From Gemmatimonadaceae bacterium (GTDB lineage: Bacteria > Gemmatimonadota > Gemmatimonadetes > Gemmatimonadales > Gemmatimonadaceae), in assembly GCA_051859245.1 (NCBI GenBank), contig JBHYGA010000005.1, positions 512,001-576,000 of the forward strand: 64,000 bases of DNA, read 5' to 3'. Position 1 is the first letter of the stretch. Each line of letters opens with the position of its first letter. A program made the position numbers and the translations under genes. The notes under the pieces were generated by a model. The model saw nothing but the letters and a program-made list of their open reading frames with translations, was not told the origin of the DNA and ran no database searches. This document shows, piece by piece, positions 867-19,861 of this stretch.

Positions 867-1102
867 GAACTGGAGTTTGGACACATCGACGACGTACTTT
901 AGCGGCGACGTAGGTTCGCCATTACTGCGGAACTATACGATGCGGTCAAGTGCTCGACGCCGTCGACAGCGGTGCTGACCTACGATTTAGTCCCACAACA
1001 AGCAAACGCATGGTTTCATTTTGCGGTGTGCACACCCGATCGCTTCCCGTAGATGCGCAATAGGCGGCGTGGAGCTTCATCTTTACACGCAATTAAGCAA
1101 AC

Positions 1103-2593: not shown

Positions 2594-2631
2594 ACGCCTG
2601 CGTCGGCCGATAGTTACTGGGCGTAGGGCGT

Positions 2632-3003: not shown

Positions 3004-3419
3004 GTGGATGGATATTCCGATGATCTCGAGGTGCTTGATCAGGTTGGGCGAAACTGAATCGCAGGTTCGCTTCCAGCTTTGGCAAGCAAACGCCGGTTAT
3101 CTAGTCTTGAATAGTGTCTACGCTGTGAGTGCAAGCGGTGTGCGCGGTTCGCGCTGCTTCCCGATTGCTGCGCGCTGTAGCTACATCTCGTTGCGTGCGC
3201 AGCGAAAGGGCGCGAAGCGCATGCTGTGCAGCATAGCAAGTGGGATGCAGGTGAGCGCGCGTTGCACGATGGTGTCAGAACTGAAATGCGCGAGGGACCA
3301 CTGTTCGAGTTTAGTATCGCGGGTGTCACAACCCTCTGACCGATTGTACTCATTCCCTTTTCTGTCGAGGGATGGTAGCGTCCCCAAATAGCTCGCAGCT
3401 TGTCGCGGTATTGATCGCG

Positions 3420-3812
3420 TCAACAGTTCACGTATGTGATAGGATTTGCCGCGCCGCGCTTCCAGTTTGCGGCGACCGATCTTCCCACGTAGCGGTCACG
3501 AACCGTCTCCTGCGCGAGCGTTCCAGTGAACTCCCAACGACCGGGGCGCTGAACGTCCTCAAGCGGACGCACGTTATAGTCGGTGGTGCCCGCGGGATGC
3601 CATTGATCGATCTCGTAGACCTCGCGGACGATCCCGTCAAACACCGCCAGCGCGAACTTCGCACCGCTCCGGCGCGGGCCGACCACCCACACGCCACGTG
3701 TGACTTCGTACAGCTGCTCGGCGGACATGTCGGGCCGATAGGCCCGTTGAATGCGAATCAAAATGGCGGCGTCGTTAATCACGACAGGAGTGGCGACTTC
3801 GTTCGTTCGCAT
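3420..3812 (-). CDS. Uncharacterised protein resembling the C-terminal domain of LEM-3-like GIY-YIG proteins (no GIY-YIG domain present)
   Basis: 130 aa with the pattern YEVTRGVW..G..R....FALAV..GIV.EVY....W....RWEFTG, recalled from that family and not HMM-confirmed. Confidence 0.55.
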   Translation of the reverse strand: MRTNEVATPVVINDAAILIRIQRAYRPDMSAEQLYEVTRGVWVVGPRRSGAKFALAVFDGIVREVYEIDQWHPAGTTDYNVRPLEDVQRPGRWEFTGTLAQETVRDRYVGRSVAANWKRGAANPITYVNC

Positions 3813-4001
3813 AGGTCATTTTTCTCGATCTTGATGGAGCGTTGGTGCAGCGTTGTCAACGAATCGCACGCAGCTGCGAGCGCCGCCTCGTCAGCATTCG
3901 TGTGGTCATATGCAAATGAATAGCACTGAAAACGGCGGGCAGCGACGGCGGGCGAGCGCCTCGGCGAATCGATTGATCGCCGCCGCGTGAAAAGTACGTC
4001 G

Positions 4002-5318
4002 TTATTCGCCGGTAGGTCCTCGCCGTAGTTTCGCGTCGTAGTTGCCCTTGCCACGACGCGCGTTGTGCGTGCGTTGCATCTGATACTTCGCGTCGCGTTC
4101 GGAGTAGTCACCGTCCCGATACCGCGCCTCCATTTGCGCGAGGTCGGCTGACTCGGCCAGCATCTCCGATGCGAACGCGACGTCGCTATATGCCGGGGAG
4201 GAGAGAATCCACTGCTGCGCGTCCTGCATGTGCTGCGCGGCCGCGTCGGCATTGCCTTGACGTTGTTCGCGAGCCGCGGCTTCACGCGCCTTCGCGGATC
4301 GGGCCATGACGATGGCGCGTTCGACTTCGGGCACCATGTGCGCCTGGCCATCGAGCGTGGCCGCGATGGGCAACGCGAGCGTGCGCTGCTCCACGCCTCC
4401 GCCGTTGGTGAGGACAAACGCTGAGACGCGCAGCGTCGCGAGAACGACAGGTTCGTTGATCGCGACGGTCGACGCGTTCGCCGGCGCGAGCAATTCGAAT
4501 AGCAACGGCTTGGGTTCACTCGCATACAGATCGCCCAGGTCGAACGTGAACGAGCCGTTTTGCTGCGTCGTGGGCCAGTCGGAGTGCACCGTGAGCATCT
4601 GGACCTCGGGGTGGAGCGTGAGCGTCACCGTCAGCCCCTGCGCTGCGACATTGAGCAGATTTCCGAGTTCCTCGGCGAAGACGTCCTGCGCCTGATCCGG
4701 CCGTTCGACGTACCACGCATTGCCGCCACCGGCGTCGGCCATGGCGCGGAGCAGATCGTCGTCGTAGCCCTCGCCGACGCCAATGGTAGACGTGGTGATG
4801 CCGAGCGTGCGTGCGGTGCGCGCGAGATCGACTAGCGTATCCCGGTCGACGATGCCCGCGTTAGCGTGGCCGTCGGTGAGGAGCACGATGCGTCGCGACG
4901 TGCCGGCGGCGCTGGACAGGAGTTCGGCGGCAGATTCCATGTGCTGACGACCTCGCAGCCACCCTCCACTGAGATTCGTGCTGCCGCCCGGCTCGATCTC
5001 TCGCAGGCGGTCAGCCAGCTGGTGTTGGTCACGGCACCGCGCGGGATCGGCCAGCGTCTCAATGTCCTGATCGAAGAGCACCGCCGAGACAACATCGTTG
5101 GGGTGCAGGCGTTCGACGGCGCGTGCGGCGGCAGAACGGGCCGCGTGCAACGGTGCGCCGGACATGGAGCCGCTGCGGTCGAGTACGAGGGAAAGACCGA
5201 GGGGCGCGCGGGACGCGGCGGTGGGAGCCGTGCCGGCGATGGAGAGCAGGGCCCGCACGACGGTGGTACCGGGGGTGGTCGCGTGCGGCTGGTGATCGAG
5301 GAGGAGCGTGGTGTCCAT
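4002..5318 (-). CDS. von Willebrand factor A (vWA) domain protein
   Basis: MIDAS motif DRSGSM, GSTNL, LLTDG. Start moved to MDTTLLL (ATG 5318) because the longer ORF overlaps the HD gene. Confidence 0.9.
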   Translation of the reverse strand: MDTTLLLDHQPHATTPGTTVVRALLSIAGTAPTAASRAPLGLSLVLDRSGSMSGAPLHAARSAAARAVERLHPNDVVSAVLFDQDIETLADPARCRDQHQLADRLREIEPGGSTNLSGGWLRGRQHMESAAELLSSAAGTSRRIVLLTDGHANAGIVDRDTLVDLARTARTLGITTSTIGVGEGYDDDLLRAMADAGGGNAWYVERPDQAQDVFAEELGNLLNVAAQGLTVTLTLHPEVQMLTVHSDWPTTQQNGSFTFDLGDLYASEPKPLLFELLAPANASTVAINEPVVLATLRVSAFVLTNGGGVEQRTLALPIAATLDGQAHMVPEVERAIVMARSAKAREAAAREQRQGNADAAAQHMQDAQQWILSSPAYSDVAFASEMLAESADLAQMEARYRDGDYSERDAKYQMQRTHNARRGKGNYDAKLRRGPTGE

Positions 5319-5346
5319 GCGCGTGTCCGTTGTGAGGGATACGGGC

Positions 5347-5368
5347 AGGTTAGGGGGAGGGTCTGACA
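5347..5368 (-). promoter_or_regulatory. PafBC/RecA-NDp-type promoter motif upstream of the vWA gene
   Basis: Minus strand TGTCAG-accctccccc-TA-acc-T, ending about 29 nt before the ATG. Confidence 0.7.
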
Positions 5369-5970
5369 GGGGCGGTTGGGTGCGCGACACCTTCAATGAC
5401 CGCGAGCAGCCGTTCCATTTCATCAAGCAGGGGCCCGCTGAATCCGGCCGTTCGATACGCGTCGCGTGCTCCCGCGTAGTACCAGACTTGCCGATCCCTG
5501 GGCGCGTTGAATCGCGACCACACCTCGTCACCAGTGCGCTCAATATCGGCCACGATCGATCGCAAGTTGTCGACCTTGTCGGCCACAGTGACGCGCAGAT
5601 CCGCGGGGTTCGCCGTGCGCGCGTGTGCCAAATACGATTCTTTGCGCTCAATCCATGGTCTCTTTGGGCCGCCTCTGTAGCCCGGGCCGGTGTCGCTGCT
5701 CAACTCCACGATGCGGCGCACGCGTTCGCCAAACTGCGCCTCGATCTCGTCGGCACTGATTTCATCGCCGTGATCCTCTACGGCGTCATGCAACAGCGCG
5801 GCGACGGCTTCATCTTCGTCACCTCCATGCCGTTGCACGAGCTGACAGACGCCGAGGAGATGCGCCAGCGTGGGAATCTGCGTGCCCTTGCGTGCGTCGG
5901 TAGCATGCAGCTTCGCGGCGAGTGCGAGAGCTGCAGCGAGGCGAGGGGAGAGGGAAGCGGTATCGGCCAT
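5350..5970 (-). CDS. RelA/SpoT-type HD-domain hydrolase (small alarmone hydrolase/MESH1-like)
   Basis: H..D.RKG...P...HL, AALLHDAVED, FGERV..IV, PW..RK..YL, ADKVDN. Start MADTAS at 5970. Confidence 0.85.
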   Translation of the reverse strand: MADTASLSPRLAAALALAAKLHATDARKGTQIPTLAHLLGVCQLVQRHGGDEDEAVAALLHDAVEDHGDEISADEIEAQFGERVRRIVELSSDTGPGYRGGPKRPWIERKESYLAHARTANPADLRVTVADKVDNLRSIVADIERTGDEVWSRFNAPRDRQVWYYAGARDAYRTAGFSGPLLDEMERLLAVIEGVAHPTAPVRPSP

Positions 5971-6105
5971 GCGTTTTGGGTTTGAGGGGGGCGGACGCAG
6001 CTCGCGTACTTGGCAACAAACTATCTCGGAAAAAATCGTGGTGTTTTCCACCGTCAAAACGCCAGCGACGTGTGGGTGTACTTGCACGAGCACCGACCAC
6101 GACGC

Positions 6106-6585
6106 TTAACACCGCCGACGAATCGGCATGTCAGGAAAGCAAAATTCCCCATGCGAGTTACTGAACGCCTGATAGTGCAGCTGTTCTATACCCTCGATTC
6201 CATACACCTCACGCAGCGTACAGATGAGCAGTGCTGCGACCTGCCGCACCGATGTGCCAGCGGGTACGTCGATGAAAAAGTTGGGGCTCCCATTGGGATC
6301 GTTGTACTTCGCCACCAGTTCCGGTGCATCATCAGTCGCTCGACGCCACCCTAGTTCGGTCAAGTAGCAGTACTGCTCGACCGTGAGCGCCGCACTCGGC
6401 GGTTCAATGTACGTGTTGCTGACCGCTTCAATGCGGAACGCCCCGGTAGTCGTACCAGCTACCTGCACAAAGTGATTGACATGACGACGCGCAATGATCA
6501 TGAAATCGCCTTTCCCCAAGTCGCCGAGCGCACGCGCGACCGCTGAAGTGAGCGATTCCCAGTGCTCTTCAGTACTTGTTGTCAC
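6106..6585 (-). CDS. TY-Chap-like (T3SS-chaperone/YbjN-like) domain protein
   Basis: FVQVA....FRIEAVSNTYI...LGW...PNF...A.L...TLREVYG pattern. GTG start at 6585 with GGAG 7 nt upstream. Confidence 0.6.
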   Translation of the reverse strand: MTTSTEEHWESLTSAVARALGDLGKGDFMIIARRHVNHFVQVAGTTTGAFRIEAVSNTYIEPPSAALTVEQYCYLTELGWRRATDDAPELVAKYNDPNGSPNFFIDVPAGTSVRQVAALLICTLREVYGIEGIEQLHYQAFSNSHGEFCFPDMPIRRRC

Positions 6586-6704
6586 GCACGATCTCCATTC
6601 GAAGGACACCGAAAATTTCGCAGCGGGGTCTGAGAGCGCCCGCGTCAACATTTGTCGGTGCACGCAAATGAGATCACGCGCATGCACCGACCGTCGATCG
6701 CTCC

Positions 6705-8684
6705 TCAGCGCCGACGCATGATCTGCGGCGTGTCTACAGCACGAGCGCTCGCGTTCGCACCAGTGAGCATTGGAACGTTCGTATCGGGTAACGCTCGCGC
6801 GCGATCACGGCGCAGCTGTTCAAGTTCCGTTGACAGCTCAGCGATGGATGACGGCATGGTGGAGCTTGCGCCAATAAACGCGTCCGCCAAGACACTCTGC
6901 AGGTTGTTGCCAGGGCAAGCCTCAAGAAGCGGCGTCAGTCTCGGCCCGAGCCCACTCACCCGAAACGACACGGCCTTTGCGCTCCCCCGGAACTCACCGA
7001 ATGCAAACGTGAACAACCGCGAGCCTGCGACCTGAAAGGCAAATGACTTGACGGAGGCATTGGTCCCTGTTTTACCGAGCGAGCTAAAGTTGTCGAACTC
7101 AAGCCAGGTCTCAGCCACTGGTGTTCCGCCATCAAAGGAAAACGCCACGGTACCGCTCGCGGTGACAAAACGATCCGTGGCGACCCATGCCACAAACGAC
7201 CCAGTCGACGAGCATACAAAAGTGAGCTCAGGATATTCGGATGAGCCAAACTGGTTTGAAATCTGATTGTCGGAGGGAAGCGTGGTGAATACGATGCCGT
7301 TACCGCTGAGCGACAACCAGTCGTACGCGGTGATTGGACTTTCCCAGGCCACTCCATCAATCGTCGCCACAATGGTGATCGTACCGGTACCGGCCGGAGT
7401 GAAGAGTCCCGCTGGCGTGAACGTGCCTGCCGAAGGATTCGTCGTGCTCCAGGAAACGGGGCGAGAGATCGTGTTCCCATCTGACGTGCGTGCAGTCACC
7501 GAATACTGATAACTGTCGCCAACCTTCACGCGCGCTGTGCCAGTGAGCGTCACACTCGTCACGGCAGATCGAACTTGTATCACGAGCGTGCCAGTACGAC
7601 CCTCGCTGCTCGCAGAGATCGAGGCCGTGCCCGGAGCGACAGCGCTCACCAGCCCAGTGGCGGACACGGTGGCAATGCTGGAATTACTCGTGCCCCACAC
7701 CACGGTGCGGTCTGTCAGCATCGCTCCATTCACGTCGCGTATTGTCGCTGAAAGTTGCGCCGTGGCGCCGGGTGTAAGCGAACTCGCCCCGGAGATCGAA
7801 ACAGTTGCAACGGGCACGGGGAGCACTGTGAGTGTCGCACTACCCGTCTGACCCTCGCTGGTGGCAGAAATGCTTGTCGTACCCGGAGCGACCGTGGTAA
7901 CTCGTCCGCTGGCATCAACCGCGGCGACCGACGTGTTCGATGATGTCCATGCCACCACGCGGCCGTCCAAAGGGCTTCCGTTGGACGATCGCAACGTTGC
8001 CGATGCCGACGTAATCGTGCCCGCGACGACTGATGCCTGCGCGAGCGTCACCGTCACGGAGGCGACAGGCGGCGGCGTCACCCTGAGTGACGCACTCCCC
8101 GTTCGTCCTTCGCTCGTAGCAGTGATCGTCGTTGTTCCGGCGGCGAGCGCGGTGACTGTTCCGGTAGCGTCAACACTTGCCACCGACGGCGCTGACGAAC
8201 TCCATGCTACGCTGCGACCGGTGAGCACGGCGCCATTGTCGGAACGCAGTTCTGCCGTTGCCGACGTGCTGGTACCCGCAACGATCTGTGGGTTCGATAG
8301 ACTCACGGTTACGGTCGCCACAGGAGGCAGTGTCACAGTCAGTGACGCACTTCCGGTTCGTCCTCCGCTCGTCGCCGTGATCGTCGTTGTTCCCGCGGTC
8401 AGTGCTGTCACGGTACCGGAGCCATCAACACTCGCCACTGCTGGCGATGACGAACTCCATGTGACACTGCGGCCACTGAGAACCGTGCCGTTAGCGGCTC
8501 GCAATTCTGCGCTTGCCGACGTGCTGGTACCCGTCACGATTTGTGCGTTCGTAAGCACCACCGTCACCGTGGCCACCGCGGGTGGTGATGGGTTCCCTGG
8601 TGGGGCGACAGGATTGTCAGTACCGCCACCACCACACGCCGTAACGAACAGCAGTGCCGCACCGCACAGTAACGATCGCTTCAT
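6705..8684 (-). CDS. Lipoprotein with 4-5 bacterial Ig-like (Big_2) repeats and a C-terminal VasI/TagO-like domain
   Basis: Signal peptide with lipobox FVTAC, then ~85-aa repeats V.WSSS.P.VASVD..G.VTA..AGTTTITATS.G. C-terminal domain PELTFVC...FDGG...W...F.VSGL..LTPLLEAC. Confidence 0.85.
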   Translation of the reverse strand: MKRSLLCGAALLFVTACGGGGTDNPVAPPGNPSPPAVATVTVVLTNAQIVTGTSTSASAELRAANGTVLSGRSVTWSSSSPAVASVDGSGTVTALTAGTTTITATSGGRTGSASLTVTLPPVATVTVSLSNPQIVAGTSTSATAELRSDNGAVLTGRSVAWSSSAPSVASVDATGTVTALAAGTTTITATSEGRTGSASLRVTPPPVASVTVTLAQASVVAGTITSASATLRSSNGSPLDGRVVAWTSSNTSVAAVDASGRVTTVAPGTTSISATSEGQTGSATLTVLPVPVATVSISGASSLTPGATAQLSATIRDVNGAMLTDRTVVWGTSNSSIATVSATGLVSAVAPGTASISASSEGRTGTLVIQVRSAVTSVTLTGTARVKVGDSYQYSVTARTSDGNTISRPVSWSTTNPSAGTFTPAGLFTPAGTGTITIVATIDGVAWESPITAYDWLSLSGNGIVFTTLPSDNQISNQFGSSEYPELTFVCSSTGSFVAWVATDRFVTASGTVAFSFDGGTPVAETWLEFDNFSSLGKTGTNASVKSFAFQVAGSRLFTFAFGEFRGSAKAVSFRVSGLGPRLTPLLEACPGNNLQSVLADAFIGASSTMPSSIAELSTELEQLRRDRARALPDTNVPMLTGANASARAVDTPQIMRRR

Positions 8685-8740
8685 CGGGCCTCTCCTCAGT
8701 CATGCTTGATGCACAACGGCATTTCCGTCATACCAAGTAC

Positions 8741-8762
8741 AAGCTGAGGGAGGGGTCTGACA
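8741..8762 (-). promoter_or_regulatory. PafBC-type promoter motif (variant) upstream of the Ig-repeat lipoprotein
   Basis: Minus strand TGTCAG-acccctccct-CA-gct-T. The spacer is nearly identical to the 5347-5368 copy. Confidence 0.6.
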
Positions 8763-11093
8763 CTACATGTTGAGCGCCGAGCGCAATCGATGAATGCGCT
8801 CCCGCAGCGCGACATGCATTGTTGCTGGCGCGATCACTTCGGCGTCTCCGCAGTACTGAAAAACGTGGCGCACTGCCCACTCCGTGTCAGCGAGTGGATG
8901 CGATACCGTGAGTGACCCATCGTCAGCGAGCGCGACTCCTTCCCGTTCGGCAATCCATCGGGCGATAGTTGGCGAGTAGCGAACCACGAGCGCGGCGTGC
9001 ACACCGTTCATGAAGGCGCGGCCGCGTTGAACAACAGCATCGATAGAGAAGCCGTCAGGAATGACGTACTGTTCGCCGGTTTTCTGTGCTTCGAGCACGC
9101 GATCAAGTCTGAACAGGCGTAGCTGCTGTGCCCGTCTGCAGTGGGCCACCATGTACAGACACGCTCCGCTTGCAAGAATCGCATAGGGTTCGACCTCGCG
9201 CGTTTCAGCGACATTGGCGCTTGACTTATGGTAGTGAATTGTGAGCACTTGCCGCTGCTGCAGCGCCAACCGCACTGTGGCCAGCGTAGCCAGGTTGCCC
9301 ACATCACCAGCCGATACCGCAAATCGATCGACGATCGGGTCGTTTCCAATCGCAACCACAACGCGTTCGAGTCTCGCCCGCGCCCGTTCCAGTACGGCGT
9401 GCTCGTTTGGGGTGCGCAAATGCTTGAGCACCGAAAGGCCGAGTGTGATCGCACAGACTTCCGTTGCGACGAGGCGCATGGGCCGCCTGAACGCTGTTGT
9501 GACAGCGGAAATCGTTTCGCGGTCGATGAAGAGTTGCACGCCCTCCACAAATCCGCCCGGTGTGTCATAACGAGCGACCAGCGCAAAGACATCACTGCGC
9601 AGCGTGTCCGCATCGATACCCGTGCGTTGCACGAGATCCTGTATAGCATGCGAATCACCGCTCGCGAGCAGTGGCATCGTTTGCAGGATCCGCCGTAACT
9701 GCGCGGCTGCTGTTTCCGTTACGCGTGCTACTCGCGCGGCCGGTTTGGTGAGCACTGGTGCGAGTGCGGGCGCCTGTGTCCCCAGCGCCGCTGCCTGCGC
9801 CGCACCGGTCTCAACAGACGTTGCCAAACGTTCGAGTGCGTGGCGCACGCCGTCTACAAGGCTGGTCGGCGACTCGGGAATCGCGTCACCGGCGAGCGCG
9901 AGCAACCAACGAATAAAGGCATCTTCTCGTCGAACGGAGAAGCGGCGACGTTCGGTACCGTCGGCGGCGGGCGGCAGTGTTTCCCCCAGCTGCAACGCGG
10001 CGCGTGCCGCGTCATCGTCTGCGCGAAAACGCACGATCACCTCGAGCGGCGGGTCTTCACCAAGCTCCCACGCCTGTCGCGACGCCGCGTGCTCGCGCAA
10101 GCGAAAGTCTGACGGCACGTCGAAGTCTGGCGTTTGTGCCTGCTTCGTGTTCAGCTGCGGCACACGGATACGATTCAGTCGAAAGTTCCGGAGTGCCGCC
10201 GCGTCGACATCTCTCGCCACGAGATACCAGTGACCGCTCTGAAAGAAGAGCCCCCACGGTTCGACCGCACGTTCACGCACCTCATTTCGACCGAAGGTGT
10301 GATACTCGAAACGCACGCGTTTCCGTCGCTGCATCGCGTCTGCGAGCGCCGCAAAAACTGCCGCGTCATGCTGCGCCGCATCATGCTGCACACGCGGTAC
10401 TCCGCTGCTCACGTGCACCGCGCCTTGCTGCTGTTCGCTGCCCGTTGGTCCCACCGGCAGATCGAACGCGAGCTTCCTGAGCGCGCGCGACGCTTCCGCA
10501 GCGAGCATTGGATCACCGAGCTCACGGGCACAGGCCGCAGCATCAACGATGGCCTGGAGCTCGTCGGGCTCGAAGGCCAACGTGGCCAACGCAGCGTACC
10601 CATAACCTGCAATCGCACGCGCACGCTCGGCGGTAGAGCCCAGCGTTTGCTGCGTTACGGTTTGCGTTGAAGCCTCTGGCGCAACCAGCACAAGATACGG
10701 CAGGTAGAAATCCGTGCGCCGCAAGCGATACGCGCCTTCCTCATTGTCGTCGTGGTCAGCAACAGTTTCGATGGGTATGCCTAGTGCGCGCAGTTCGTCC
10801 TTGTCGCGTTCGAACATGCGTTTGGTACTGTCGCGTCGTCGCTTGATCTCGGCGAGCTGTGTCGGATCGTTTGTGCCAGCCACATCGGGCCATTCGTACG
10901 CCGGCACCTCGGGTGCGAGCTGCTCGAAGGTGACTTCCTTGCGACGCGCGAGAAGAGCGGCCACCAGATCCACCCATCGCTGTAGTTTCGCGTTGCCCGC
11001 GCTGGCCGGTGGCAACTCCAAGTCGTCGGCAGCTTCGTCAGCGCTGTTGTGTTCGCGAGCCGTCGCGGAGGATCCGGGTTGTGTGGACATCAT
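8763..11093 (-). CDS. PafBC-like fused double HTH-WYL-WCX transcriptional regulator
   Basis: PafB-like half: KRMFERDKDELRALGIPI, VEPWGL, GHWYLVARD, RNFRLNRI. PafC-like half: FRRPMRL, VEPYAI, LRLFRLDRV, V.QYCGDAEVIAP. Start MMSTQP at 11093 is inferred. Confidence 0.9.
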   Translation of the reverse strand: MMSTQPGSSATAREHNSADEAADDLELPPASAGNAKLQRWVDLVAALLARRKEVTFEQLAPEVPAYEWPDVAGTNDPTQLAEIKRRRDSTKRMFERDKDELRALGIPIETVADHDDNEEGAYRLRRTDFYLPYLVLVAPEASTQTVTQQTLGSTAERARAIAGYGYAALATLAFEPDELQAIVDAAACARELGDPMLAAEASRALRKLAFDLPVGPTGSEQQQGAVHVSSGVPRVQHDAAQHDAAVFAALADAMQRRKRVRFEYHTFGRNEVRERAVEPWGLFFQSGHWYLVARDVDAAALRNFRLNRIRVPQLNTKQAQTPDFDVPSDFRLREHAASRQAWELGEDPPLEVIVRFRADDDAARAALQLGETLPPAADGTERRRFSVRREDAFIRWLLALAGDAIPESPTSLVDGVRHALERLATSVETGAAQAAALGTQAPALAPVLTKPAARVARVTETAAAQLRRILQTMPLLASGDSHAIQDLVQRTGIDADTLRSDVFALVARYDTPGGFVEGVQLFIDRETISAVTTAFRRPMRLVATEVCAITLGLSVLKHLRTPNEHAVLERARARLERVVVAIGNDPIVDRFAVSAGDVGNLATLATVRLALQQRQVLTIHYHKSSANVAETREVEPYAILASGACLYMVAHCRRAQQLRLFRLDRVLEAQKTGEQYVIPDGFSIDAVVQRGRAFMNGVHAALVVRYSPTIARWIAEREGVALADDGSLTVSHPLADTEWAVRHVFQYCGDAEVIAPATMHVALRERIHRLRSALNM

Positions 11094-11188
11094 CGTGTAT
11101 TGTCGGCGGTTGCCTGCATTCGAGCGCCCCGTTTGGTGCGTGCGAGCCGGGTCAGGGAAGGGATCGCACATGACCCGAACAGAAAACG

Positions 11189-11210
11189 AAGGTACGGTCG
11201 AGCTCTGACA
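11189..11210 (-). promoter_or_regulatory. PafBC-type promoter motif upstream of the PafBC-like gene (possible autoregulation)
   Basis: Minus strand TGTCAG-agctcgaccg-TA-cct-T, about 95 nt upstream of the inferred start. Confidence 0.65.
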
Positions 11211-11389
11211 GTGGCCTGCGAGCCTCAGGCCGTAGCCCCGGTTTGGCTGTGGGTAGCCAAGTGCGCAACAGATGCTTATCGATCGCCAAGTCAGACGCGG
11301 GCTAGGCAACCGACACACCGCGAGCCTGCCGCAATCGGACTGCTTCGTGTTTAGGCTTGGCGGCAAAACTTCGCTTCGTCTGCCTGATA

Positions 11390-11485
11390 TGCAATCACCG
11401 ATTCCAAGGTGCTTACCTTAAGTAGGTGTTTACGGAACCCGGTGCATCGCAATAGAGTGGCCGTCAGCATCATGTGTCGTTATGA
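11390..11485 (-). mobile_element. Truncated/degenerate attC site after the RNase H-like gene
   Basis: R''-like TCATAAC (11485-11479) contains the stop codon and is 1 mismatch from the complement of this cassette's start GTTGTGA. An internal hairpin 11390-11405/11434-11451 follows. No L'/R' arm found. Confidence 0.5.
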
Positions 11486-12094
11486 CTCTGCCGAACGAAC
11501 GACAAGGCAAGGCTGTGAGAGGATCTCTAGGTCACGGCTCCAGCCTGTTGCAAGCATGGCTGCGCCAATTAGGGCGAGAGGAAGCTCGCAGGTAACGTCT
11601 GAGGTGGGGGCGCCACCAGCTGTGCGCTTGAGAAAGCCGTTCACGGCGATCATTGCATCATCGCTATGATTCGCTCCCTTCGCTCCGCCCGAAACAAACC
11701 CCTCCCAGAAAAGCACGCCTTCGTTGGCTTCATTGAAGAGGCGCCAGTCTATGAATCCCGGGGCCGCGTCGTGGAGTTCACGAATCCTTCGCAGGATCCA
11801 AGTGACTTGGGTCAGCCCTGTAGCAAGCGCAGCGGCCCCGGCGCCTGCGGACCAAGGTCGATTGCCCTCGCCCGTGCGCGCCGCGGTGAGGCCGATGGGG
11901 TCACAAGAAACTGGCACGAAGAGGGGGCACTCGAAGCCGAGTGCGACCTTTTGCCCCGAGGTCAGCGAACTCGCAACGGCGCCGGCCAGCGTTTCAGGAT
12001 CAGAACCTGTCTGCCAACCGCTACCGACGCGCCAGCCGGCCCACCCGAAGCGGCCCGTTCGCACCGAGCCGATATCTGCGCAAGCTATAAGCAG
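11480..12094 (-). CDS. DUF429-like RNase H-fold putative nuclease, CTG start; cassette gene
   Basis: The frame extends to CTG at 12094 with a perfect SD TAAGGAG 8 nt upstream, giving MLIACADIGS. Also ALGFECPLFVP, LFWEGFVSG and HSDDA (acidic residue pattern). Confidence 0.65.
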   Translation of the reverse strand: MLIACADIGSVRTGRFGWAGWRVGSGWQTGSDPETLAGAVASSLTSGQKVALGFECPLFVPVSCDPIGLTAARTGEGNRPWSAGAGAAALATGLTQVTWILRRIRELHDAAPGFIDWRLFNEANEGVLFWEGFVSGGAKGANHSDDAMIAVNGFLKRTAGGAPTSDVTCELPLALIGAAMLATGWSRDLEILSQPCLVVRSAES

Positions 12095-12112
12095 CTCGGT
12101 GTCTCCTTATTG

Positions 12113-12252
12113 TCACAACCCTCGCGTTCTGCAGCGAACGCCCACACGGAAGCAAGCGGGGCGTTCGCACTTTCCTTTCAGACTACAGCGAACGCACCGC
12201 GATCGCTACACGGGTCTTCGCCGCGTTTGACTGCAGCAACGCAAGGTTAGCC
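12113..12252 (-). mobile_element. Integron attC recombination site (140 bp)
   Basis: R'' GGCTAAC-5 nt-L'' GTTGCTGC ... L' GCAGAAC-6 nt-R' GTTGTGA. Two extrahelical bases lie 6 bp apart (GTT-G-CTGCAG-T-CAAACGC vs GCGTTCG-CTGCAG-AAC). Inner stem 12156-12168/12188-12200. The G-T wobble forms on the bottom (+) strand. Confidence 0.88.
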
Positions 12253-12398
12253 TGCGGCTGGGTCCAGTACAGGTACATGGTTCACACTTTGCTGTAGTAC
12301 CAAACCCTGCTCGGTAGGTTCGACGAGCGCACGCGTACGATCACCGGCGCGCCGTCACAAAAAAGGACTGTTAACCATGTGCCCGGACATAGTGTCAC

Positions 12399-13373
12399 CT
12401 ATCTTCCCGTGTTCACTGTGCGTGCTCGTGCGGGGCTACGTGGATTCTTTCTGGATAGTCGCACTCGCGTGCAGACTACTCGACCATCCGCGACTACATC
12501 CTCCCGACGATCCCTTCGACTCACTCGCAAGCAACCCACCTCAGGGAATCGCATAGCGATAAGGATTGAGGCGAGCACGTGCGGCTTCGGACCCATGGGG
12601 ATCAAGTTGACATCGGCAGAGCGTCGATGCGGATCAATGGTCTCGGCAAGATACCGAAATGCCTGTTCTACGCTTGTCAGCGGAAGCCCGAAGGAGCGCG
12701 CAGCTTGAGACACGATTTCTCGATTCTCCTCCTGAACTCGCGCGGCGTATCCATCGGGGGCGTCCTGCTCTGCAAAGAATGAGTAGATCAGATCAGGCTC
12801 CATCTGGTCTAGAACACAGAGGGATGCCAGACTGTCAAAGCCGAGGCCGATGATCGCCACTGACCGATTGTGCGCAAGCGCTCCTCCTTCGCAGCCCGGA
12901 ATGCACAGTACATTGTCAATGACCATAGGCGGAAGAGTAGTCTGGTGTCTTCCCACGGCGTAAACGAAGTCGATGTCGACGGTTTCAAGAGCACTTGCAA
13001 CTCGAAACCAATTCAGAACCGCTGCGTACCAGAGACGCGACATCGCACTGTAGTCAACCAAGATCTTGAGCGCGGACTTGGCGTTAGACTCTGCGTCTCT
13101 CAAGCACGAATAGATGGCGATATCGTCACTTCCTGCTATGACCTTCGGAAGTACGCCAAAAGCACTGCGAAAAAACTCGTCGTTTGTCTTGCGGACGATA
13201 TCGTCGGCAACCGTGGAAAAGCCGACTACTGAGATCTTTCCGAGACGCGCAGCTTCCAGCTTGCCGGCGATAAACGATGCGCGGACCTCATACCCACTCG
13301 CGAAAATGCTGGCGTCGTAACTTCCGGCTTGCACTGCGGCAAGGTCAGAGTCCTCGATGCTATCAATCAACAT
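12399..13373 (-). CDS. Uncharacterised protein with two Rossmann/CARF-like domains
   Basis: ATG 13373 with GGAGG upstream. Halves ASGYEVRA...ILVDYSAMSR and GLGFD...LIPMGPKPHVLAS. Overlaps the ATPase stop by 11 nt. Confidence 0.65.
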   Translation of the reverse strand: MLIDSIEDSDLAAVQAGSYDASIFASGYEVRASFIAGKLEAARLGKISVVGFSTVADDIVRKTNDEFFRSAFGVLPKVIAGSDDIAIYSCLRDAESNAKSALKILVDYSAMSRLWYAAVLNWFRVASALETVDIDFVYAVGRHQTTLPPMVIDNVLCIPGCEGGALAHNRSVAIIGLGFDSLASLCVLDQMEPDLIYSFFAEQDAPDGYAARVQEENREIVSQAARSFGLPLTSVEQAFRYLAETIDPHRRSADVNLIPMGPKPHVLASILIAMRFPEVGCLRVSRRDRREDVVADGRVVCTRVRLSRKNPRSPARARTVNTGR

Positions 13374-15189
13374 GAGAATCGTCGCCTCCGAACAAGTCGC
13401 TCTGCTCGACAAGGCGTGCGGCGCGTTCTTCTTTCGAGGCAGACTGATATGCGAGAATCCAAGTCAAGCTTCGCGCGCGTCCGCGTCTAGGTAGTATGCG
13501 AAAGTGTGGCGCGAGAACGTACGCTAGATGAAACGTACCGCTGCGAATTGGCATCTGATCCGGATTGCTTTGGCCAGTGTTTGGGAAGAGTAGTCCCAGA
13601 CCGACAGCGCGTTCGATGAGCTTCCAGTGTTCGCTGCTTACCGATGCATCGACGATAAAGCTCGAGATCTGGTCCGTGCTTATGGGGCGGTTGTGCAGTG
13701 AGTCGCGCATGAATGAACCGACACGCTCAATGAATGTGAAGAGTTCCGGGCCAACCTCCGGCTCGCTTTGGATTCTTGAGAGGGTAGTAGTGGAGAACGC
13801 GATCAGGTTTCTTGTTTGGTTCGCCTGCGTTATGGACTTAATCCTTCTTCCGTCTCGCCAGCGTTCCTCAACCAAGAAGCTGTTAATGATCCTGATGAGT
13901 CTCCGTGGATTTGCGTCGCCGCACCGCACGATCATGCTCGCGCCAGAGTAAACTTTCAACTCATCGCGACCAGTCGTCCTTTGAATTGCCTCGCGGAGCT
14001 GTATCGCGCCATGCATTTTGCGACTGATCTGATTTCTAAACTCGGACGGATTCGGTACAAGACGATCCGCTCTGGCGATTGTTTGCTCATCCGCATGCTT
14101 TCTTAGGAGCTCCCAATTCGCGGAATCTTCATCCCACGATTCACTCTGTGGATCAAGAAGTTCTGAGCGTCCAAAGAGCGCGTTTAAGGTAACTCCCTGA
14201 TACTTCGCGCCTGACGCGGATGCTCGCTTCCGAAATAGCAAGTCAGCGAACTGCCTCCCGTTGTCTTCCTTCACGCCGGAGAAGCCGATTGGATCGCGAT
14301 CGATGTAGACGTATTCAAAATCGTGACCAACATTCAAACCTACTCCAAGATTGGTGTCTTGGGTCAGGTGGTAGTACGGCATGGTCGTAATCTTGAAGTG
14401 CAGATTGCCACTGTTGCTTCGAAGATACGAGTTAAGGATTCGCTGGTGTTCGAGTCCCAAGAACTCCGCCTCGTCGAGGCATAGTAACCATGAGCAGTCT
14501 GCAGGCAGTTGCAAAGCTACGGCACTTAGTGCGATCGCCCTGCGCAGCGGCGTGAAGAGAGGTAGGTCAAAGCCAATTCCTGCTGGCTCCTCCGCTTCAC
14601 GAAGAGATCCGGTCGCACGTACCCTCACCAATTGCTGCTGCTTCTGATGCTCACTTGCTTCGATTTGTGCTTGTAGCGCGCGAATACTCTCTAATGGCGG
14701 GAACTCCGGCATCCATGCCACGCAAAGCTGCCCGACTATGTGCCCCTCAAGACGAGCCGCTTCACCACGATCAGAGGAGTATCTGTCTAGGCAGCTACGC
14801 AGGGTGACGAGGAACGCCAAGCAGCTCGCGACGTTTAGCCGCCACTGGAAGAACGACTCCAGCTCGACTTCCGTTTGCCACGTCTTGTTTTTGAGTCCAC
14901 CAACCCACTCAAGGCTCGTTGGCAGATAGATGCCGATGAACGCTCTCGACTGGATTGCGCTCTTAGCGCGCGGATTTTCGAATCTGGACAGATGATCATG
15001 TGAGAGCATCTTCGCCAGCACAGTCTTGCCCGATCCGCGGGCGCCAAGAACGATATGGTTTTTCGGAGAAAGCAACCGCCAGAACGACCTCGTGTCGACA
15101 AAGGTGGCGACAACCTCATCGCGCGTCAGGTTTCTTGCGTTTTCTATCTCGAAAAGATCTCGCCGGAAGTCGCTGCTTGTCTCAACCAT
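13363..15189 (-). CDS. ORC/CDC6-like STAND P-loop ATPase with C-terminal winged-helix-like region
   Basis: N-terminal FEIENAR, Walker A GARGSGKT, Walker B LLCLDEAE, NPRRLIRI, C-terminal LIERAVGLGLL...FHLAYVLAPHFRI. Confidence 0.8.
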   Translation of the reverse strand: MVETSSDFRRDLFEIENARNLTRDEVVATFVDTRSFWRLLSPKNHIVLGARGSGKTVLAKMLSHDHLSRFENPRAKSAIQSRAFIGIYLPTSLEWVGGLKNKTWQTEVELESFFQWRLNVASCLAFLVTLRSCLDRYSSDRGEAARLEGHIVGQLCVAWMPEFPPLESIRALQAQIEASEHQKQQQLVRVRATGSLREAEEPAGIGFDLPLFTPLRRAIALSAVALQLPADCSWLLCLDEAEFLGLEHQRILNSYLRSNSGNLHFKITTMPYYHLTQDTNLGVGLNVGHDFEYVYIDRDPIGFSGVKEDNGRQFADLLFRKRASASGAKYQGVTLNALFGRSELLDPQSESWDEDSANWELLRKHADEQTIARADRLVPNPSEFRNQISRKMHGAIQLREAIQRTTGRDELKVYSGASMIVRCGDANPRRLIRIINSFLVEERWRDGRRIKSITQANQTRNLIAFSTTTLSRIQSEPEVGPELFTFIERVGSFMRDSLHNRPISTDQISSFIVDASVSSEHWKLIERAVGLGLLFPNTGQSNPDQMPIRSGTFHLAYVLAPHFRILPRRGRARSLTWILAYQSASKEERAARLVEQSDLFGGDDSHVD

Positions 15190-15194
15190 GTTTG

Positions 15195-16418
15195 CTAATT
15201 GAAAAGGAGAACGATGTCTTCTGGTGTATCTCCGTGCGTCCGAAAATCGAAGTGCTTTTCTATGTCGCGAAGAACCTGTAGGATCGTCTCAGCCGGTAAG
15301 TATTTGAGGTCGGAGCATTCGGCGACGATTTCATGCCAGCTGCAGTAAGCCTTGGGTCCCCTTCTAGCGTTAATGATGGGTGAGACAAGGGACCGGAGTT
15401 CGGAGATTGTGTCGTGTTTGCCGAATGGGCGCCGATGCTCGATGCCGTGATGAATCCGACTTTTTTGCCAGCCATTGGAGAACAGATACGACCAGCTCTC
15501 CACGGTCCCGCAAATCCGCCCCGACCTCGTTCGGCCATCAACCGCAATCACGTGAAACTGATTTGCGACGATGCCACTCCACCTGGTGCTGATCAGAGCA
15601 GAGAGACTTCCTGAGCCTAGGATCGCCAGCGGTGGGTATGGTGTTGTCGCGTACGTATTGAAGTGTGGCTTGTGCTTGTGACCATGAACGAGTAGATCGA
15701 TCTCGTGGCGCCCGAGCATCTTTAATAGCGCGTCAGAATTGACCATCAGACTAAAGTCTGGCGAATCAGGCGCAGGATCCGAGTACTGCACCGGATGATG
15801 ATGCACCAAGAACACTCTCAGTTGTCCATTGGCCGGCGGACGCGCGGACAGCAGTCGGTCTAGTTCTTCGAGCGACTTTGTAGAAATGCTACCGTGGTGT
15901 GGCTTCGTATCGGGATTGTCGTTCCATGATGAGTTGTGAGCGAAGAGTACCGCGTGTTCGTCCTCCCAAAAGCCGAGGTACGGTTCATCAACCAAGCTCG
16001 TCGAACTCTTCGAAATACATCTAGACAAAACTTGACTGGTTCGGGTTAGCGGAACGTACCGCTGCGCCGCTCCTAGTCCGGTCTTGTCATCAGGATATTG
16101 AGAGAACGACGTCCAGTTTACATCGTGATTCCCAGGGACAAATGCAATTCTCTCTTCGGCGACTCCTAGTGCTTCCGCGATCTCTAGCAGAAACTCTGAC
16201 GCGAGTACGAATTCATCCGGTTGGGCTTTGTTGCTCACGTCACCAGGGCAGAGTAGATAGTCCGCCCTTATCGTGTTCTCGCGAAGAAATTTGATGAAGG
16301 TCGATCGATAGTTGCTTTCGATCTGATGTGTCGAGGGACTTGGTGACAGATCCTTGGCGCGAGCACCAGTACCGACGTGGAGATCGCTTGCAACTGCCAA
16401 ACGGAGTGGCTTTTTCAT
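15195..16418 (-). CDS. Calcineurin-like metallophosphoesterase with C-terminal extension
   Basis: All five motifs present: SDLH, PGD, GNHD, VHHH, HGHKH. Start MKKPLRLAV at 16418, 10 nt after the MTase stop. Confidence 0.9.
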   Translation of the reverse strand: MKKPLRLAVASDLHVGTGARAKDLSPSPSTHQIESNYRSTFIKFLRENTIRADYLLCPGDVSNKAQPDEFVLASEFLLEIAEALGVAEERIAFVPGNHDVNWTSFSQYPDDKTGLGAAQRYVPLTRTSQVLSRCISKSSTSLVDEPYLGFWEDEHAVLFAHNSSWNDNPDTKPHHGSISTKSLEELDRLLSARPPANGQLRVFLVHHHPVQYSDPAPDSPDFSLMVNSDALLKMLGRHEIDLLVHGHKHKPHFNTYATTPYPPLAILGSGSLSALISTRWSGIVANQFHVIAVDGRTRSGRICGTVESWSYLFSNGWQKSRIHHGIEHRRPFGKHDTISELRSLVSPIINARRGPKAYCSWHEIVAECSDLKYLPAETILQVLRDIEKHFDFRTHGDTPEDIVLLFN

Positions 16419-16428
16419 TGTGCGTTCG

Positions 16429-17250
16429 TCAGCGCTTCGCGATAACAGAGTTTGTGAAGACCAGTTCTGCAGCGCGGCGCCTATGCTTCGCAAAACCAGA
16501 TATGTTTCGCTGGACGAACTTTCGTTCTACATGCCAGCCATTGAACTGCCGCCTTGACTCAGCTGAGTCGGCGTACGATAGGACGAACGTCGCCCCCAAC
16601 GCGTTGATGCAGTGCAGGAGTTCTGACAGACGCTCCAAATCTTCCAAACCGAACGTCGCTGGCCCGTACTGACGAAAGATCCGACGATTCTCAACCGCAT
16701 ACGGCGGATCTAGGTAGACGAGGTCTCCCGATCGTACGTTGTCGCGAACAACGCGTTCAAAGTCGCCACAGACAATCTTGCAGGATCGGAGCCGAACGCT
16801 GCATTGCTGAATCTGTGTAAAGGAGGGCAAACGGCCGGTTCGCGTAGGTGCATAAGGTACGTTGAACTGCCCCTGAAGATTGGTCCTATAGAGTCCATTG
16901 AAGCAAAAGCGATTCAGGTAGACTAGCCTTGCCGCACGTTGCGCGCTTGTAAGATTCGAGTAATCCTGACCTCTCAGTGAGTTGTACGTCTCCCTGGATT
17001 GCGGCAGACGGTCAAGCTCATGAGACACAGCGTCTGGAGTATCTCTTACAGCAACGTATAGATTCGTGAGTTCCTCGTTCGAGTCCGACAGCAGTGCTCG
17101 TTTCGGATCGAGTGCAAAAAATAGACTTGCCGAGCCTGCGAATGGTTCGACGTACCGAACGTGCTGCTCCGCGTTCCAGTAGCGCACTAGTGTGCTTATT
17201 AGGCGTCGCTTGCTGCCCGCCCATCGAAGTATCTGGAGCTCTGACTTCAC
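16429..17250 (-). CDS. Dam-family (D12 class) DNA N6-adenine methyltransferase
   Basis: LRWAGSK, YVEPFAGS, FNGLYRTN..G.FNVPY, VYLDPPY. GTG start. Confidence 0.92.
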   Translation of the reverse strand: MKSELQILRWAGSKRRLISTLVRYWNAEQHVRYVEPFAGSASLFFALDPKRALLSDSNEELTNLYVAVRDTPDAVSHELDRLPQSRETYNSLRGQDYSNLTSAQRAARLVYLNRFCFNGLYRTNLQGQFNVPYAPTRTGRLPSFTQIQQCSVRLRSCKIVCGDFERVVRDNVRSGDLVYLDPPYAVENRRIFRQYGPATFGLEDLERLSELLHCINALGATFVLSYADSAESRRQFNGWHVERKFVQRNISGFAKHRRRAAELVFTNSVIAKR

Positions 17251-17439
17251 GAAATCGGTAGTCCACAGAGGTTTCGCAAATTACTTACCGGGGGAAGATC
17301 GTCTCGGCAGCGGGCGTGCGTAAGTGCGAGCTGCCTGCAGTTCGCGGCACCGCCAAGAAGCAGAAAATTGGGTCGCAAGAATAGCCGGCGTTGTGCGTAC
17401 GGCCAGAACCTAGGTTTGGTGTGCCCTGCCACCGGGCGC

Positions 17440-17988
17440 TCAGGGAGTAGCCGAAACTCTCGCTGGAGGCGCCTGCTGAACTTTGAAGAAGTCCCCCATC
17501 TCGGCGTGAACGATCTCATACGTCTGGACTCGGAAACGCCCAAAGGCGGTCTCCAACTCACCCAGTCTGTCCGCCGAGTTTGAAGCACGCGCGATGGCGA
17601 TGGATGCTTCCCAATCGGCGCGAAGCGCCTGAAGTGCGAAGAGCGCCTCGGTTTGACTTCTCCATCCGACTTCCCATCTAAAGTGAGTACCGATTCCGGT
17701 TAGGATCGCTATCACGGCTGAAGCAGCGGATACAAGGAAGCTCTTGCTGATCGGGAATCCGTAGACAACCGTGTCTGTTGCGAATACGGCAATCAGCGGA
17801 AGTAGTCCGCTCAACACGATTATGCTGACGCTTGAGTACCTGAACCACTTTCGCTTCGTCGTCGATCTGTCACGATAGTAGTCGAGCATGTACTCAAAAC
17901 TCTCAGGCGTGTGAATGTCTGAGAGAAACACGGATGTGCTCAGCTGGGTGAGGTAGCGCTCTATTGTATCGTCAGTTTTTGCTTCCAT
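17440..17988 (-). CDS. DUF4231/SLATT-like two-transmembrane protein
   Basis: YYRDRSTTKRKWFR, two hydrophobic segments, then FRWEVGWRS.TE...L. It is the first gene after the cassette start. Confidence 0.75.
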   Translation of the reverse strand: MEAKTDDTIERYLTQLSTSVFLSDIHTPESFEYMLDYYRDRSTTKRKWFRYSSVSIIVLSGLLPLIAVFATDTVVYGFPISKSFLVSAASAVIAILTGIGTHFRWEVGWRSQTEALFALQALRADWEASIAIARASNSADRLGELETAFGRFRVQTYEIVHAEMGDFFKVQQAPPARVSATP

Positions 17989-18360
17989 ATCTTCGGACCG
18001 ATTTGGGGGTGCCGCAGGCTAACGTGGATCGGATGGCCCGACATATCGTCCGCCGAAGCAACCTATTCGCAGGCAAGTTGCTCGATCTGCCGCCGGTGAA
18101 CGAATCAGCAACTTGTTGATGTCAAACTATCTGTACGCGCCTGATTGCTAGCGAAGTCGCAATACGGTCGGTCTACCTAATCCCAACTCGACCACACACT
18201 CCTCTAGCTGACAATTGACTGCGGGGCTGCAGCGCCCGCGAACTCCACCGCACAAGAAGCTCGCGTTCGATGCCGACTAGCTAGCAGGCGACGCCTCGGC
18301 CCGCTAGCCTGTCCACTCGCCGTTGGTTCGCGACGCGACACAAGTGTTGGCGCACATGAA

Positions 18361-18390
18361 GCCAAGCAGATCCTGATGAAACTGCTTGGC
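18361..18390 (-). terminator. Hairpin downstream of bchZ
   Basis: GCCAAGCAG-12 nt-CTGCTTGGC, just 3' of the bchZ stop, with a weak U-tract. Confidence 0.4.
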
Positions 18391-18406
18391 CGAACGCTAG
18401 TTCTTC

Positions 18407-19861
18407 TCACCCCACCCCCACCAACCCCCGTCTCGACGCCATAACGTGATCCCGCGTCACCGTCCCATCCCCCAGCTCCCGCGCATCTCTCTCGGCCGCG
18501 TCCCTCAACCGCTTCGCCACTGAAATCCGAATCAACACCGGCTGCGCATCACACAACTCATCAAGCAACGCCTTCGCGTCATCACTCCACGGCAGCTCCT
18601 TATGCAGTCTCGCCGGCGTCGCATCGATCTTGTCCATATCCGTACCCAGCGGCAGGATATGAAACAGCGCATCAAACAGCTGATTACACACTTCCTGAAT
18701 CAGATACGTCGCGCCCGAATACCCCATGAACGGCGTGCCCGTATGCCGGCGAATAATCGCCCCAGGAAACGACGCCGGAATGTACATCGCGCGCGACCCA
18801 CTCTCGGCCAGATACATGCGCTCGTTGTACGAACCAAACATGATCAGTGGCGGCGTAGCTTTAATCGCCGCACGCACGGCCTGATTGTCCGGCTTTACAC
18901 CAGGCCTGCGCGCAAAGCTGAAAGTGCAGGGCAGCCCCATCTCCGTTTCAAGGAAATGGCGAATGCCACGCGCGTGCGTTTCGTTCGCCACAATCGCAAA
19001 ACTCGCCGTGCCGAAAAAATCTTGCGTGACCGACCGCCACAAATCCCACAACGGCTTGATGGTGGTGTGCTTTTCTTTTTCAATGAACGGTTCGGGATCT
19101 ACACCCAGCAACTCACCGAGCGTGCGCAAAAACTTGGTGGTGCTATGCAAACCGATTGGTGCCTGCAAATACGGCACATCAAGATCTTCGCACAGCAGGC
19201 GACCAAACTCGCGGTACATGCAGATGTTCACATCAGCATCCACCAACCGCGGCACTTCACTCAAATGCGCGCCGAGCGGGAACACCATGTTGATCTCCGC
19301 GCCAATGCCTTCCACCATGCGGCGCACTTCGGCGAGATCACTCCACGTGTTGAAGTAGCCGTACATGGGCCCGATAATGTTCACGCGCGGCTTGGCGCCG
19401 GGCAAACGCTCCGACTTGTTGGGACGCACACCTTTTTTGAGGCCGTACTCCGTCCACAACCAGTAGATGGCACGGTTCGCAGCCTGCCACTGATCTTCGT
19501 CAATCGTGCGCGGCAGAAAACGCTGAATGTTGGTGCCTTCCGGCGTGACACCACCACCAATCATTTCGGCGATTGAACCGGTCACCACTACGGCCGGCAA
19601 CTCCGGATCAAGCGTGGAGTGCGCGCGTTTCATGGCGGCTTCAGTACCGGTCTGACCAAGCTCTTCTTCGCCGAGTCCGGTCACAACAATGGGCAGTTCG
19701 TGCGGCGGCAGTGCGTCGGTGTAGTGCAGTACCGATGTCACCGGCAGGTTTTCGCAGCCAACCGGCCCGTCAATCACCACCTGCAAACCCTTGATCGCGG
19801 TAAACGCATACACTGCGCCCCAATACCCACCAGCGCGATCAAGATCGAGAATCAATGTCAT
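18407..19861 (-). CDS. bchZ: Chlorophyllide a reductase subunit Z
   Basis: [22 protein letters not shown]-terminal [18 protein letters not shown]. Position after bchY. Confidence 0.97.

Follow-up and report, generated by a model that had tools for sequence, protein, structure and literature searches.

A probable five-gene integron-type cassette behind bchB in a Gemmatimonadaceae genome and its putative defence cargo

An integron cassette is commonly pictured as one small gene. The DNA described here, a stretch of 64,000 nucleotides from a Gemmatimonadaceae bacterium (positions 512001-576000 of contig C5 in a genome of 4,698,531 bases in 11 contigs; hereafter the window), contains at 12119-18022 five foreign genes which, on reading the sequence, all lie on the minus strand, tightly packed, beside bacteriochlorophyll genes. 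The segment running from 18022 to 12119 on the minus strand (5,904 bp) is probably a single integron-type cassette, inserted by an integrase at a G^TT site behind bchB (the caret marks the crossover) and carrying a foreign SLATT gene together with a four-gene operon. The inference that it is one cassette is drawn from three independent observations: the recombination site (attC) at its end belongs to an attC family with covariation, the start of the unit is complementary to the flank of its own attC, and there is no attC inside it. This article discusses the evidence for the cassette, its cargo, the site of insertion and the readings that compete with it.

The attC hairpin, the cassette ends and the size of the unit

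The two ends of the unit are as follows.

12113-12252, minus strand: attC, 140 nt; R'' is GGCTAAC at 12252-12246, R' is G^TTGTGA at 12119-12113, and the crossover lies between 12119 and 12118
18011-18023, minus strand: 5' boundary of the cassette; G18023 is followed by the first 12 cassette bases, and the G^TT crossover lies between 18023 and 18022

An attC is an imperfect palindrome bounded by R'' (...AAC) and R' (GTT...) and is 57 to about 150 nt long. The sequence at 12113-12252 is an imperfect palindrome with both boxes at its bounds and a length within this range; it folds as a long imperfect hairpin (DNA fold z -2.6 and -3.6), and its reconstituted R' reads GTTAGCC. Covariance models score it at 136.9 and 92.1 bits on the minus strand, as against 21.4 and 11.0 bits on the plus strand, so the attC is oriented with the genes, as is usual for cassettes, and the opposite orientation is ruled out. 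In the model alignments it has a 3 x 4 central spacer and one extra G on the 5' arm (the canonical arm). It is the one significant attC of the 64-kb window. The next-best model match, a weak one at 28019-28096 on the minus strand (16.9 bits, E 0.064), lies within the Mg-chelatase gene region and is probably due to chance.

The hairpin has relatives in the same genome. A second copy with the same architecture is found on contig C6, and a model made from three sites of the window and C6 (R1) finds four further sites adjoining a truncated integron integrase on contig C1. A model made from all seven (R2) finds exactly these seven in the genome, 150 of 5,178 first-look candidates having been scored. 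In the seven-site alignment, which is fitted to the model and so favours the structure, the paired share of the cells is 88.7%, and compensatory change on both sides is seen in 13 of 25 pairs; none of 500 shuffles reaches the observed pairing score.

Furthermore, a 20-letter pattern taken from the R''-L'' arm picked out 32 loci among metagenome contigs (L072-L103). R2 recognises 82 sites, spread over 29 of these loci and arranged in co-oriented arrays with at most nine members; the counts cannot be treated as independent, since several of the loci nearly duplicate one another. The other three (L081, L089 and L095) carry the 20-mer but no model match. Eight metagenome attCs are 75-87% identical to the window attC over 12251-12117, and the likeness ends there. 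Because the likeness is confined to the attC, the hairpin is a discrete module which is attached to different cargos elsewhere, and neither any of the five cargo proteins nor an intI-like fragment was found by tblastn in the 32 metagenome loci, the integrase query being the intI remnant of this genome. The family thus sits in arrays with co-oriented open reading frames (ORFs) on C1, on C6 and in metagenomes, and the window copy itself is single.

The two arrays of this genome deserve a short description. The locus on C6 (L006, C6:195001-215000) holds at 13870-15762 a cassette array with no integrase seen nearby; one cassette has a 179-aa ORF without family match and is followed by a HigB/HigA-like pair, recognised by reading the translation. 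Its attCs are these.

L006, 13870-13973: attC
L006, 14892-15014: attC
L006, 15667-15762: weak third attC (20.4 bits)

The locus on C1 (L008, C1:516001-536000) holds at 2152-11450 a decayed integron with four co-oriented attCs after a 114-aa C-terminal intI remnant (10446-10790). An HI1419/HI1420 toxin-antitoxin pair lies upstream of the remnant, and a 5.3-kb slot between two attCs (9268 to 3976) has a 1,550-aa antisense ORF.

Integron cassettes are joined by crossover at G^TT, and therefore the first bases of a cassette are complementary to its own R'' box. On the minus strand GTTAGCCTGCGGC stands at 18023-18011, T18022 being 34 nt ahead of the first ATG (17988), and GCCGCAGGCTAAC stands at 12258-12246 as its perfect 13-base complement. 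This pairing, which the initial annotation of the stretch had taken as its point of departure, can be read directly in the sequence and is unique: on both strands of the whole 4,698,531-base genome the 13-mer GTTAGCCTGCGGC has two copies only, namely the two ends as an inverted pair, while 0.14 copies are expected by chance. The rule was also tested on 12 cassettes of the same attC family lying between two attCs, in which the perfect complement between the start and the own R'' flank measures 12, 11, 9, 1, 1, 14, 10, 11, 8, 8, 10 and 2 bp. It is at least 8 bp (range 8-14) in nine of the 12, and the 13 bp of the window cassette are within this range. The two 1-bp cases are the same sequence in two contigs and the 2-bp case has a mutated GTT. 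In addition, the R'' flank of the sister attC on C6 has a perfect 14-bp complement about 0.9 kb upstream, starting at the GTT of the preceding attC.

As for the interior of the unit, an unfiltered covariance-model run on 10500-19500 yields at most 6.8 bits (E 2.9) for any internal match. A structure-only heuristic, which recovers five of the six known attCs in the C6 and C1 loci, finds nothing within 12253-18022, and the region between the first two genes (17240-17450) folds no better than shuffles (z +1.39). The earlier statement that no internal attC was found is thus borne out, the gap at 17250-17440 included. Metagenome cassettes of the family have a median attC-to-attC spacing of 912 bp and a maximum of 3,166 bp (n=53), figures which the shortness of metagenome contigs biases against long cassettes, and the window unit measures 5,904 bp. 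The description of an exceptionally large multigene cassette is therefore supported by the attC family, the end rule and the missing internal site.

The foreign genes and the four-gene system in other genomes

Read on the minus strand, the genes come in the order SLATT, Dam, phosphoesterase, ATPase and CARF, and the unit is made up as follows.

17440-17988, minus strand: SLATT-domain membrane protein, 182 aa; NCBIfam SLATT_1 (NF033634), 56.3 bits against a cut-off of 41
17251-17439, minus strand: non-coding gap between SLATT and Dam, 189 nt; no attC, no notable fold
16429-17250, minus strand: Dam-family N6-adenine DNA methyltransferase; TIGR00571, 191.9 bits against a cut-off of 114.85; PF02086, E 8.9e-42
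15195-16418, minus strand: calcineurin-like metallophosphoesterase, 407 aa; PF00149, E 3.5e-14
13363-15189, minus strand: ORC/Cdc6-like AAA+ ATPase, 608 aa; PF24389 (ORC-CDC6-like), 306.9 bits
12399-13373, minus strand: stand-alone tandem-CARF protein (PADLOC label 'CARF6'); PADLOC PDLC01912, E 3.2e-51
12253-12398, minus strand: spacer from the CARF stop codon to the attC, 146 nt; holds an imperfect inverted repeat

The DNA at 12119-18022 is foreign. The five genes have a guanine + cytosine (GC) content of 0.527-0.552, in a genome of GC 0.62, and a third-position GC (GC3) of 0.58-0.61 versus 0.66-0.69 in resident genes; their common orientation and lower GC had been pointed out before and are confirmed. 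A SLATT homologue occurs in one of 400 other genomes of the phylum, as a weak match only. The CARF gene likely starts with the ATG at 13373, overlapping the stop codon of the ATPase gene, and with this start the two genes overlap by 11 nt. A scan for promoters and terminators gave nothing beyond shuffle expectation. The inverted repeat of the spacer has arms at 12267-12286 and 12369-12388 (20 nt, 80% complementary, with 82 nt between the arms).

Family models and the CARF fold agree with four of the five gene assignments made initially (SLATT, Dam, phosphoesterase and CARF) and not with the fifth, a STAND ATPase: nSTAND3 gives 16.4 bits versus a cut-off of 27.2, and the protein is ORC/Cdc6-like instead, as its PF24389 score indicates. 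The SLATT protein stays under the cut-off of Pfam DUF4231 (22 against 24.7 bits). In the Dam-family protein the DPPY motif is readable, and GATC specificity is predicted from the family model. The motifs DxH, GD, GNHD and GHxH are all readable in the translated phosphoesterase. In an alignment of homologues the conserved columns include the Walker A and B positions of the ATPase, G52-T56 being nearly invariant and D239 and E240 invariant. Among solved structures, a sequence search turned up no match for the CARF protein or for the ATPase (best E 0.16), and the phosphoesterase matched only LpxH-type proteins (E 0.0077).

The phosphoesterase matches the NCBIfam model DS9_1, 'anti-phage phosphoesterase', with E 2e-27 and 96.2 bits against a cut-off of 420, a match covering the phosphatase domain only (profile positions 195-475 of 486). 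By sequence, therefore, the protein resembles the DS-9A / Calcineurin-CE class and falls outside that equivalog. For the last protein the label 'CARF6' comes from PADLOC profile names alone. Its AlphaFold2 model (mean predicted local distance difference test, pLDDT, 91.9) is aligned best by VIA-align with Can1 (6sce_A, Z 13.0, root-mean-square deviation 3.2, an alignment of 222 residues that takes in both halves), and the first 15 ranks (Z 13.0 to 9.2) consist entirely of CARF proteins. Foldseek gives Csm6 a probability of 1.00 but a template-modelling (TM) score of only 0.26, that is, local agreement. On this modelled fold the protein is a tandem CARF.

The proteins recall several known systems. 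DS-9 is a validated two-gene defence system (PMC13092281). In PUA-Cal-HAD, which equals DS-9, the Calcineurin-CE domain is described as depleting deoxynucleoside triphosphates (dNTPs), the trigger being Dam-derived N6-methyl-deoxyadenosine monophosphate (m6-dAMP) (PMC12871103). The present system is like PUA-Cal-HAD, as that account presents it, in pairing a calcineurin-like metallophosphatase, as the presumed effector, with a putative nucleotide-binding sensor domain and in its link to Dam methylation, on which PUA-Cal-HAD defence depends. It is unlike it in having neither PUA nor HAD, in that the candidate sensors are the tandem-CARF protein and the ORC/Cdc6-like ATPase, and in carrying its own Dam. 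With Can1 and other CARF effectors of type III CRISPR systems it shares two CARF domains in one chain; unlike Can1, the protein has no fused effector domain, and no cas10 or other cyclase is present in the cassette.

Most of these genes travel together elsewhere. The ATPase has 356 homologues at E<=1e-10, the best with 63% identity. An alignment of 20 of them was used to fetch 49 loci from species genomes, in which the partners were counted by tblastn: the phosphoesterase is present in 47 of the 49, the tandem-CARF gene in 46 and Dam in 34, and in one further locus (L024) a divergent D12 methylase is seen by Pfam. The SLATT gene is found by tblastn in none of the 49 loci. The conserved system therefore consists of four genes: Dam, phosphoesterase, ATPase and CARF. 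This is also their usual order, with Dam sometimes downstream. According to record titles the hosts belong to the Acidobacteriota, Proteobacteria, Nitrospirota, Verrucomicrobiota, Chloroflexota, Bacillota, Bacteroidota and others. Among 56 flanking ORFs of 15 loci are HipA and HI1420-type toxin-antitoxin genes, an MmeI-type restriction-modification gene, NERD and HerA-like proteins, a relaxase, an integrase and transposases, which are the usual neighbours of defence genes. The literature searched gave no paper on the four-gene set, which is provisionally undescribed.

The distribution of Dam follows a pattern. Fifteen loci lack a Dam match; six of them are cut by contig ends, one is L024 and eight are fully flanked. 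These eight (L041, L043, L045 and L047-L051) are all from Gammaproteobacteria, namely Cedecea, Morganella, Serratia, Enterobacter, Vibrio, Shewanella, Pseudoalteromonas and Paraglaciecola. The orders to which they belong, Enterobacterales, Vibrionales and Alteromonadales, generally have a housekeeping Dam, and the loci from these orders are exactly the fully flanked ones that lack the gene. The pattern suggests that the four-gene system needs GATC methylation from any source.

Probable insertion behind bchB and alternative readings

The cassette lies between two flanks.

18024-18406, minus strand: right flank; 383 non-coding nt from the bchB-like stop codon to the insertion point
11480-12118, minus strand: left flank; TTGTGAC past the crossover, then a 194-aa ORF without family match

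The junctions read ...GATCCAC-G^TTAGCC... and ...GCGAGG-G^TTGTGAC..., with G^TT at both, so the target was a plain G^TT site. In the proposed course of events, the attC hairpin at the 3' end of a cassette circle would have closed on the first 12 cassette bases to give a 13-bp R-box stem, and a now-absent integron integrase would have joined the folded attC to a G^TT site in double-stranded DNA, 383 bp past the end of bchB (...GATCCAC-G^TTGTGAC...). The outcome would be an isolated attC cassette without an integrase, of the type called SALIN. Isolated attC cassettes (SALINs) in 2,469 genomes have been reported, together with genomic insertion at GWT sites in which attG is recombined as double-stranded DNA (Loot et al., 10.1101/2022.09.11.507474).

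The present case is like a SALIN, as these are characterised by Loot et al., in having one attC with genes upstream of it, no integrase, attI or second attC nearby, and G^TT junctions which fit the GWT consensus. It is unlike the usual SALIN in having five genes and 5.9 kb instead of a single ORF, and the mechanism of insertion is deduced from the sequence. There is a single attC in 64 kb, with G^TT at both crossovers, as expected of a SALIN inserted at attG, and the unit is not a complete integron, which would have an intact integrase and an attI beside the cassette. The initial annotation had spoken of an integron cassette moving as one excisable unit: the cassette, with its attC and end signatures, stands as a single unit, whereas its place in an integron does not, there being no upstream attC or attI and a truncated intI only, and excision is deduced from the end signatures. 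The best integron-integrase match of the genome (TIGR02249) reaches 130 bits against a cut-off of 265 and is the 114-aa C-terminal remnant on another contig. Because this remnant is all the intI that the genome has, the cassette would now be fixed, unless an integrase acts in trans. The cassette is co-oriented with bchB, and read-through could therefore, as a speculation, express it.

Several points weigh against a cassette of this kind. Upstream of 18023 there is no attC or attI (no model match; fold z 0.17), and the window has no integrase or second attC. No empty site was seen among 40 related genomes searched with each flank and five loci compared by tblastx; the left flank is absent from all 40 and the likeness does not reach past the bchB stop codon, so that these relatives have no stretch in which an empty site would show. 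No circle junction and no unit-free strain were seen in the assembled contigs of three sequencing runs, compared at 80% likeness, and such contigs are blind to rare circles or deletions. One of the three runs, the probable source, has the stretch; there a single contig runs through the region, with 0 differences and unbroken at 12119 and 18022. On the R''-L'' arm the extrahelical base, which in attCs determines the strand that recombines, differs from the G/T of canonical attC bottom strands. The covariance models were built from the same attC family which they score; Rfam is not known to hold an attC family. R2 (E<=1) finds no attC of this family in the 49 related loci (793,907 bases), which leaves this cassette as the one case of the cargo joined to such an attC. 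Long cassettes are poorly recovered in experiments: in a library test, one with attC sites 4 kb apart is reported to have given 0 reads (10.64898/2026.03.17.712381), and accordingly a 5.9-kb cassette should recombine poorly. As to the cargo, no defence phenotype is known for the four-gene set, and PADLOC 2.0 has no system model for it. In the 49 related loci the structure-only heuristic gives 15 candidates, one of which (L067, 11791-11843) lies less than 300 nt from the end of a CARF gene.

Three other histories can be considered. The first is that the cassette has grown: a small original cassette, for example SLATT with its attC, would have received the four-gene operon later, and the unit would still be one cassette today. 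The absence of SLATT from the 49 related loci, the 189-nt gap between SLATT and Dam, and the occurrence of the system without family attC at the other loci examined speak for such growth. Nevertheless it is considered unlikely, as SLATT and the four genes share the same range of GC and GC3, no transposase or recombinase is encoded within the unit, and the four-gene block has neither direct nor inverted repeats at its sides, 17230-17460 and 12253-12420 sharing no word longer than 8 nt.

The second, that SLATT and the four-gene operon were once separate cassettes, the attC between them having decayed or been deleted, would suit the small cassettes typical of the family (median spacing 912 bp) and the non-coding character of 17251-17439. 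However, the complement of the surviving R'' flank is found upstream of SLATT at 18023 and not in the gap, and the gap has neither an attC-model match nor an excess of folding, so that a fusion is judged very improbable. Least credible of all is that the segment is no cassette but an island inserted otherwise, with a structured repeat or terminator at one end and a chance 13-mer; the window has no integrase or array, relatives differ over the whole region left of bchB, and about 0.5 chance 13-bp inverted pairs are expected per 8 kb, but the 13-mer lines up precisely with the R'' box and has no copy elsewhere in the 4.7-Mb genome, array cassettes obey the same complementarity rule (nine of 12), and the attC family to which the hairpin belongs shows covariation and is organised in arrays. 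A single cassette inserted at G^TT remains the preferred reading.

The region to the left of the cassette has features of its own. Two overlapping 194-aa ORFs, at 11480-12064 (minus strand) and 11666-12250 (plus strand), have no match in Pfam, PADLOC or NCBIfam, and the plus-strand one, which runs into the attC, is probably spurious. Window positions 1-12118 are not common to five related genomes which share bchB. They encode an 867-aa protein with two WYL domains, a WCX and a PafC-HTH domain (8763-11366), and also a Big_2 repeat protein, a TY-Chap3 protein, a VWA protein and an AAA ATPase; this part has the look of a variable island bordering the photosynthesis cluster.

A possible mode of action and what the cassette means

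Phage-defence integron cassettes (BRiCs) have been described, together with homologues of cassette-borne systems outside integrons (Kieffer et al., 10.1101/2024.07.02.601719). The present cassette is like BRiCs in that genes of defence type are packaged as an attC-bounded cassette. It is unlike them, in the account of Kieffer et al., since BRiCs lie in mobile integrons and were tested with phages, while here a multi-gene operon lies outside any integron and is known from its sequence.

The chances that the cargo is a methylation-dependent defence system which senses nucleotides or DNA appear to be about even. Such a system would most likely work against phages or by abortive infection and would require GATC methylation. 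Detection of a nucleotide or DNA cue would fall to the tandem-CARF protein and the ATPase, the target of the phosphoesterase would be nucleotide pools or nucleic acid, and SLATT would supply a further effector, at the membrane, as a feature specific to this cassette. A more detailed scheme can be offered only tentatively: the CARF protein may bind a nucleotide cue, possibly one derived from methylated DNA, the ATPase may sense or scaffold on DNA, the phosphoesterase may be the effector and SLATT an extra membrane effector. A wider and somewhat more doubtful speculation is that integron-type recombination packages defence operons of 5-6 kb, twice in this genome and once with delivery to a G^TT site outside an integron, and that the cargo is a new phylum-spanning immune system. 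In it, a cyclase-less tandem-CARF protein and an ORC/Cdc6-like ATPase would control a phosphoesterase, and the system would need GATC methylation, respond to an m6-dAMP-like cue and bring its own Dam except in hosts which bear one.

SALINs, insertion at attG and defence cassettes are already in print, and what is new is an extreme multigene example, in which five genes and 5.9 kb outside any integron are bounded by two intact recombination signatures. The finding suggests that integrases can deliver whole defence operons to ordinary chromosomal sites, here right behind a photosynthesis operon, and the cassette offers a natural substrate for probing the size limit of cassette recombination. Moreover, the four-gene module occurs in at least 49 species genomes of many phyla, and the pattern of its Dam gene gives a testable hint at the mechanism.

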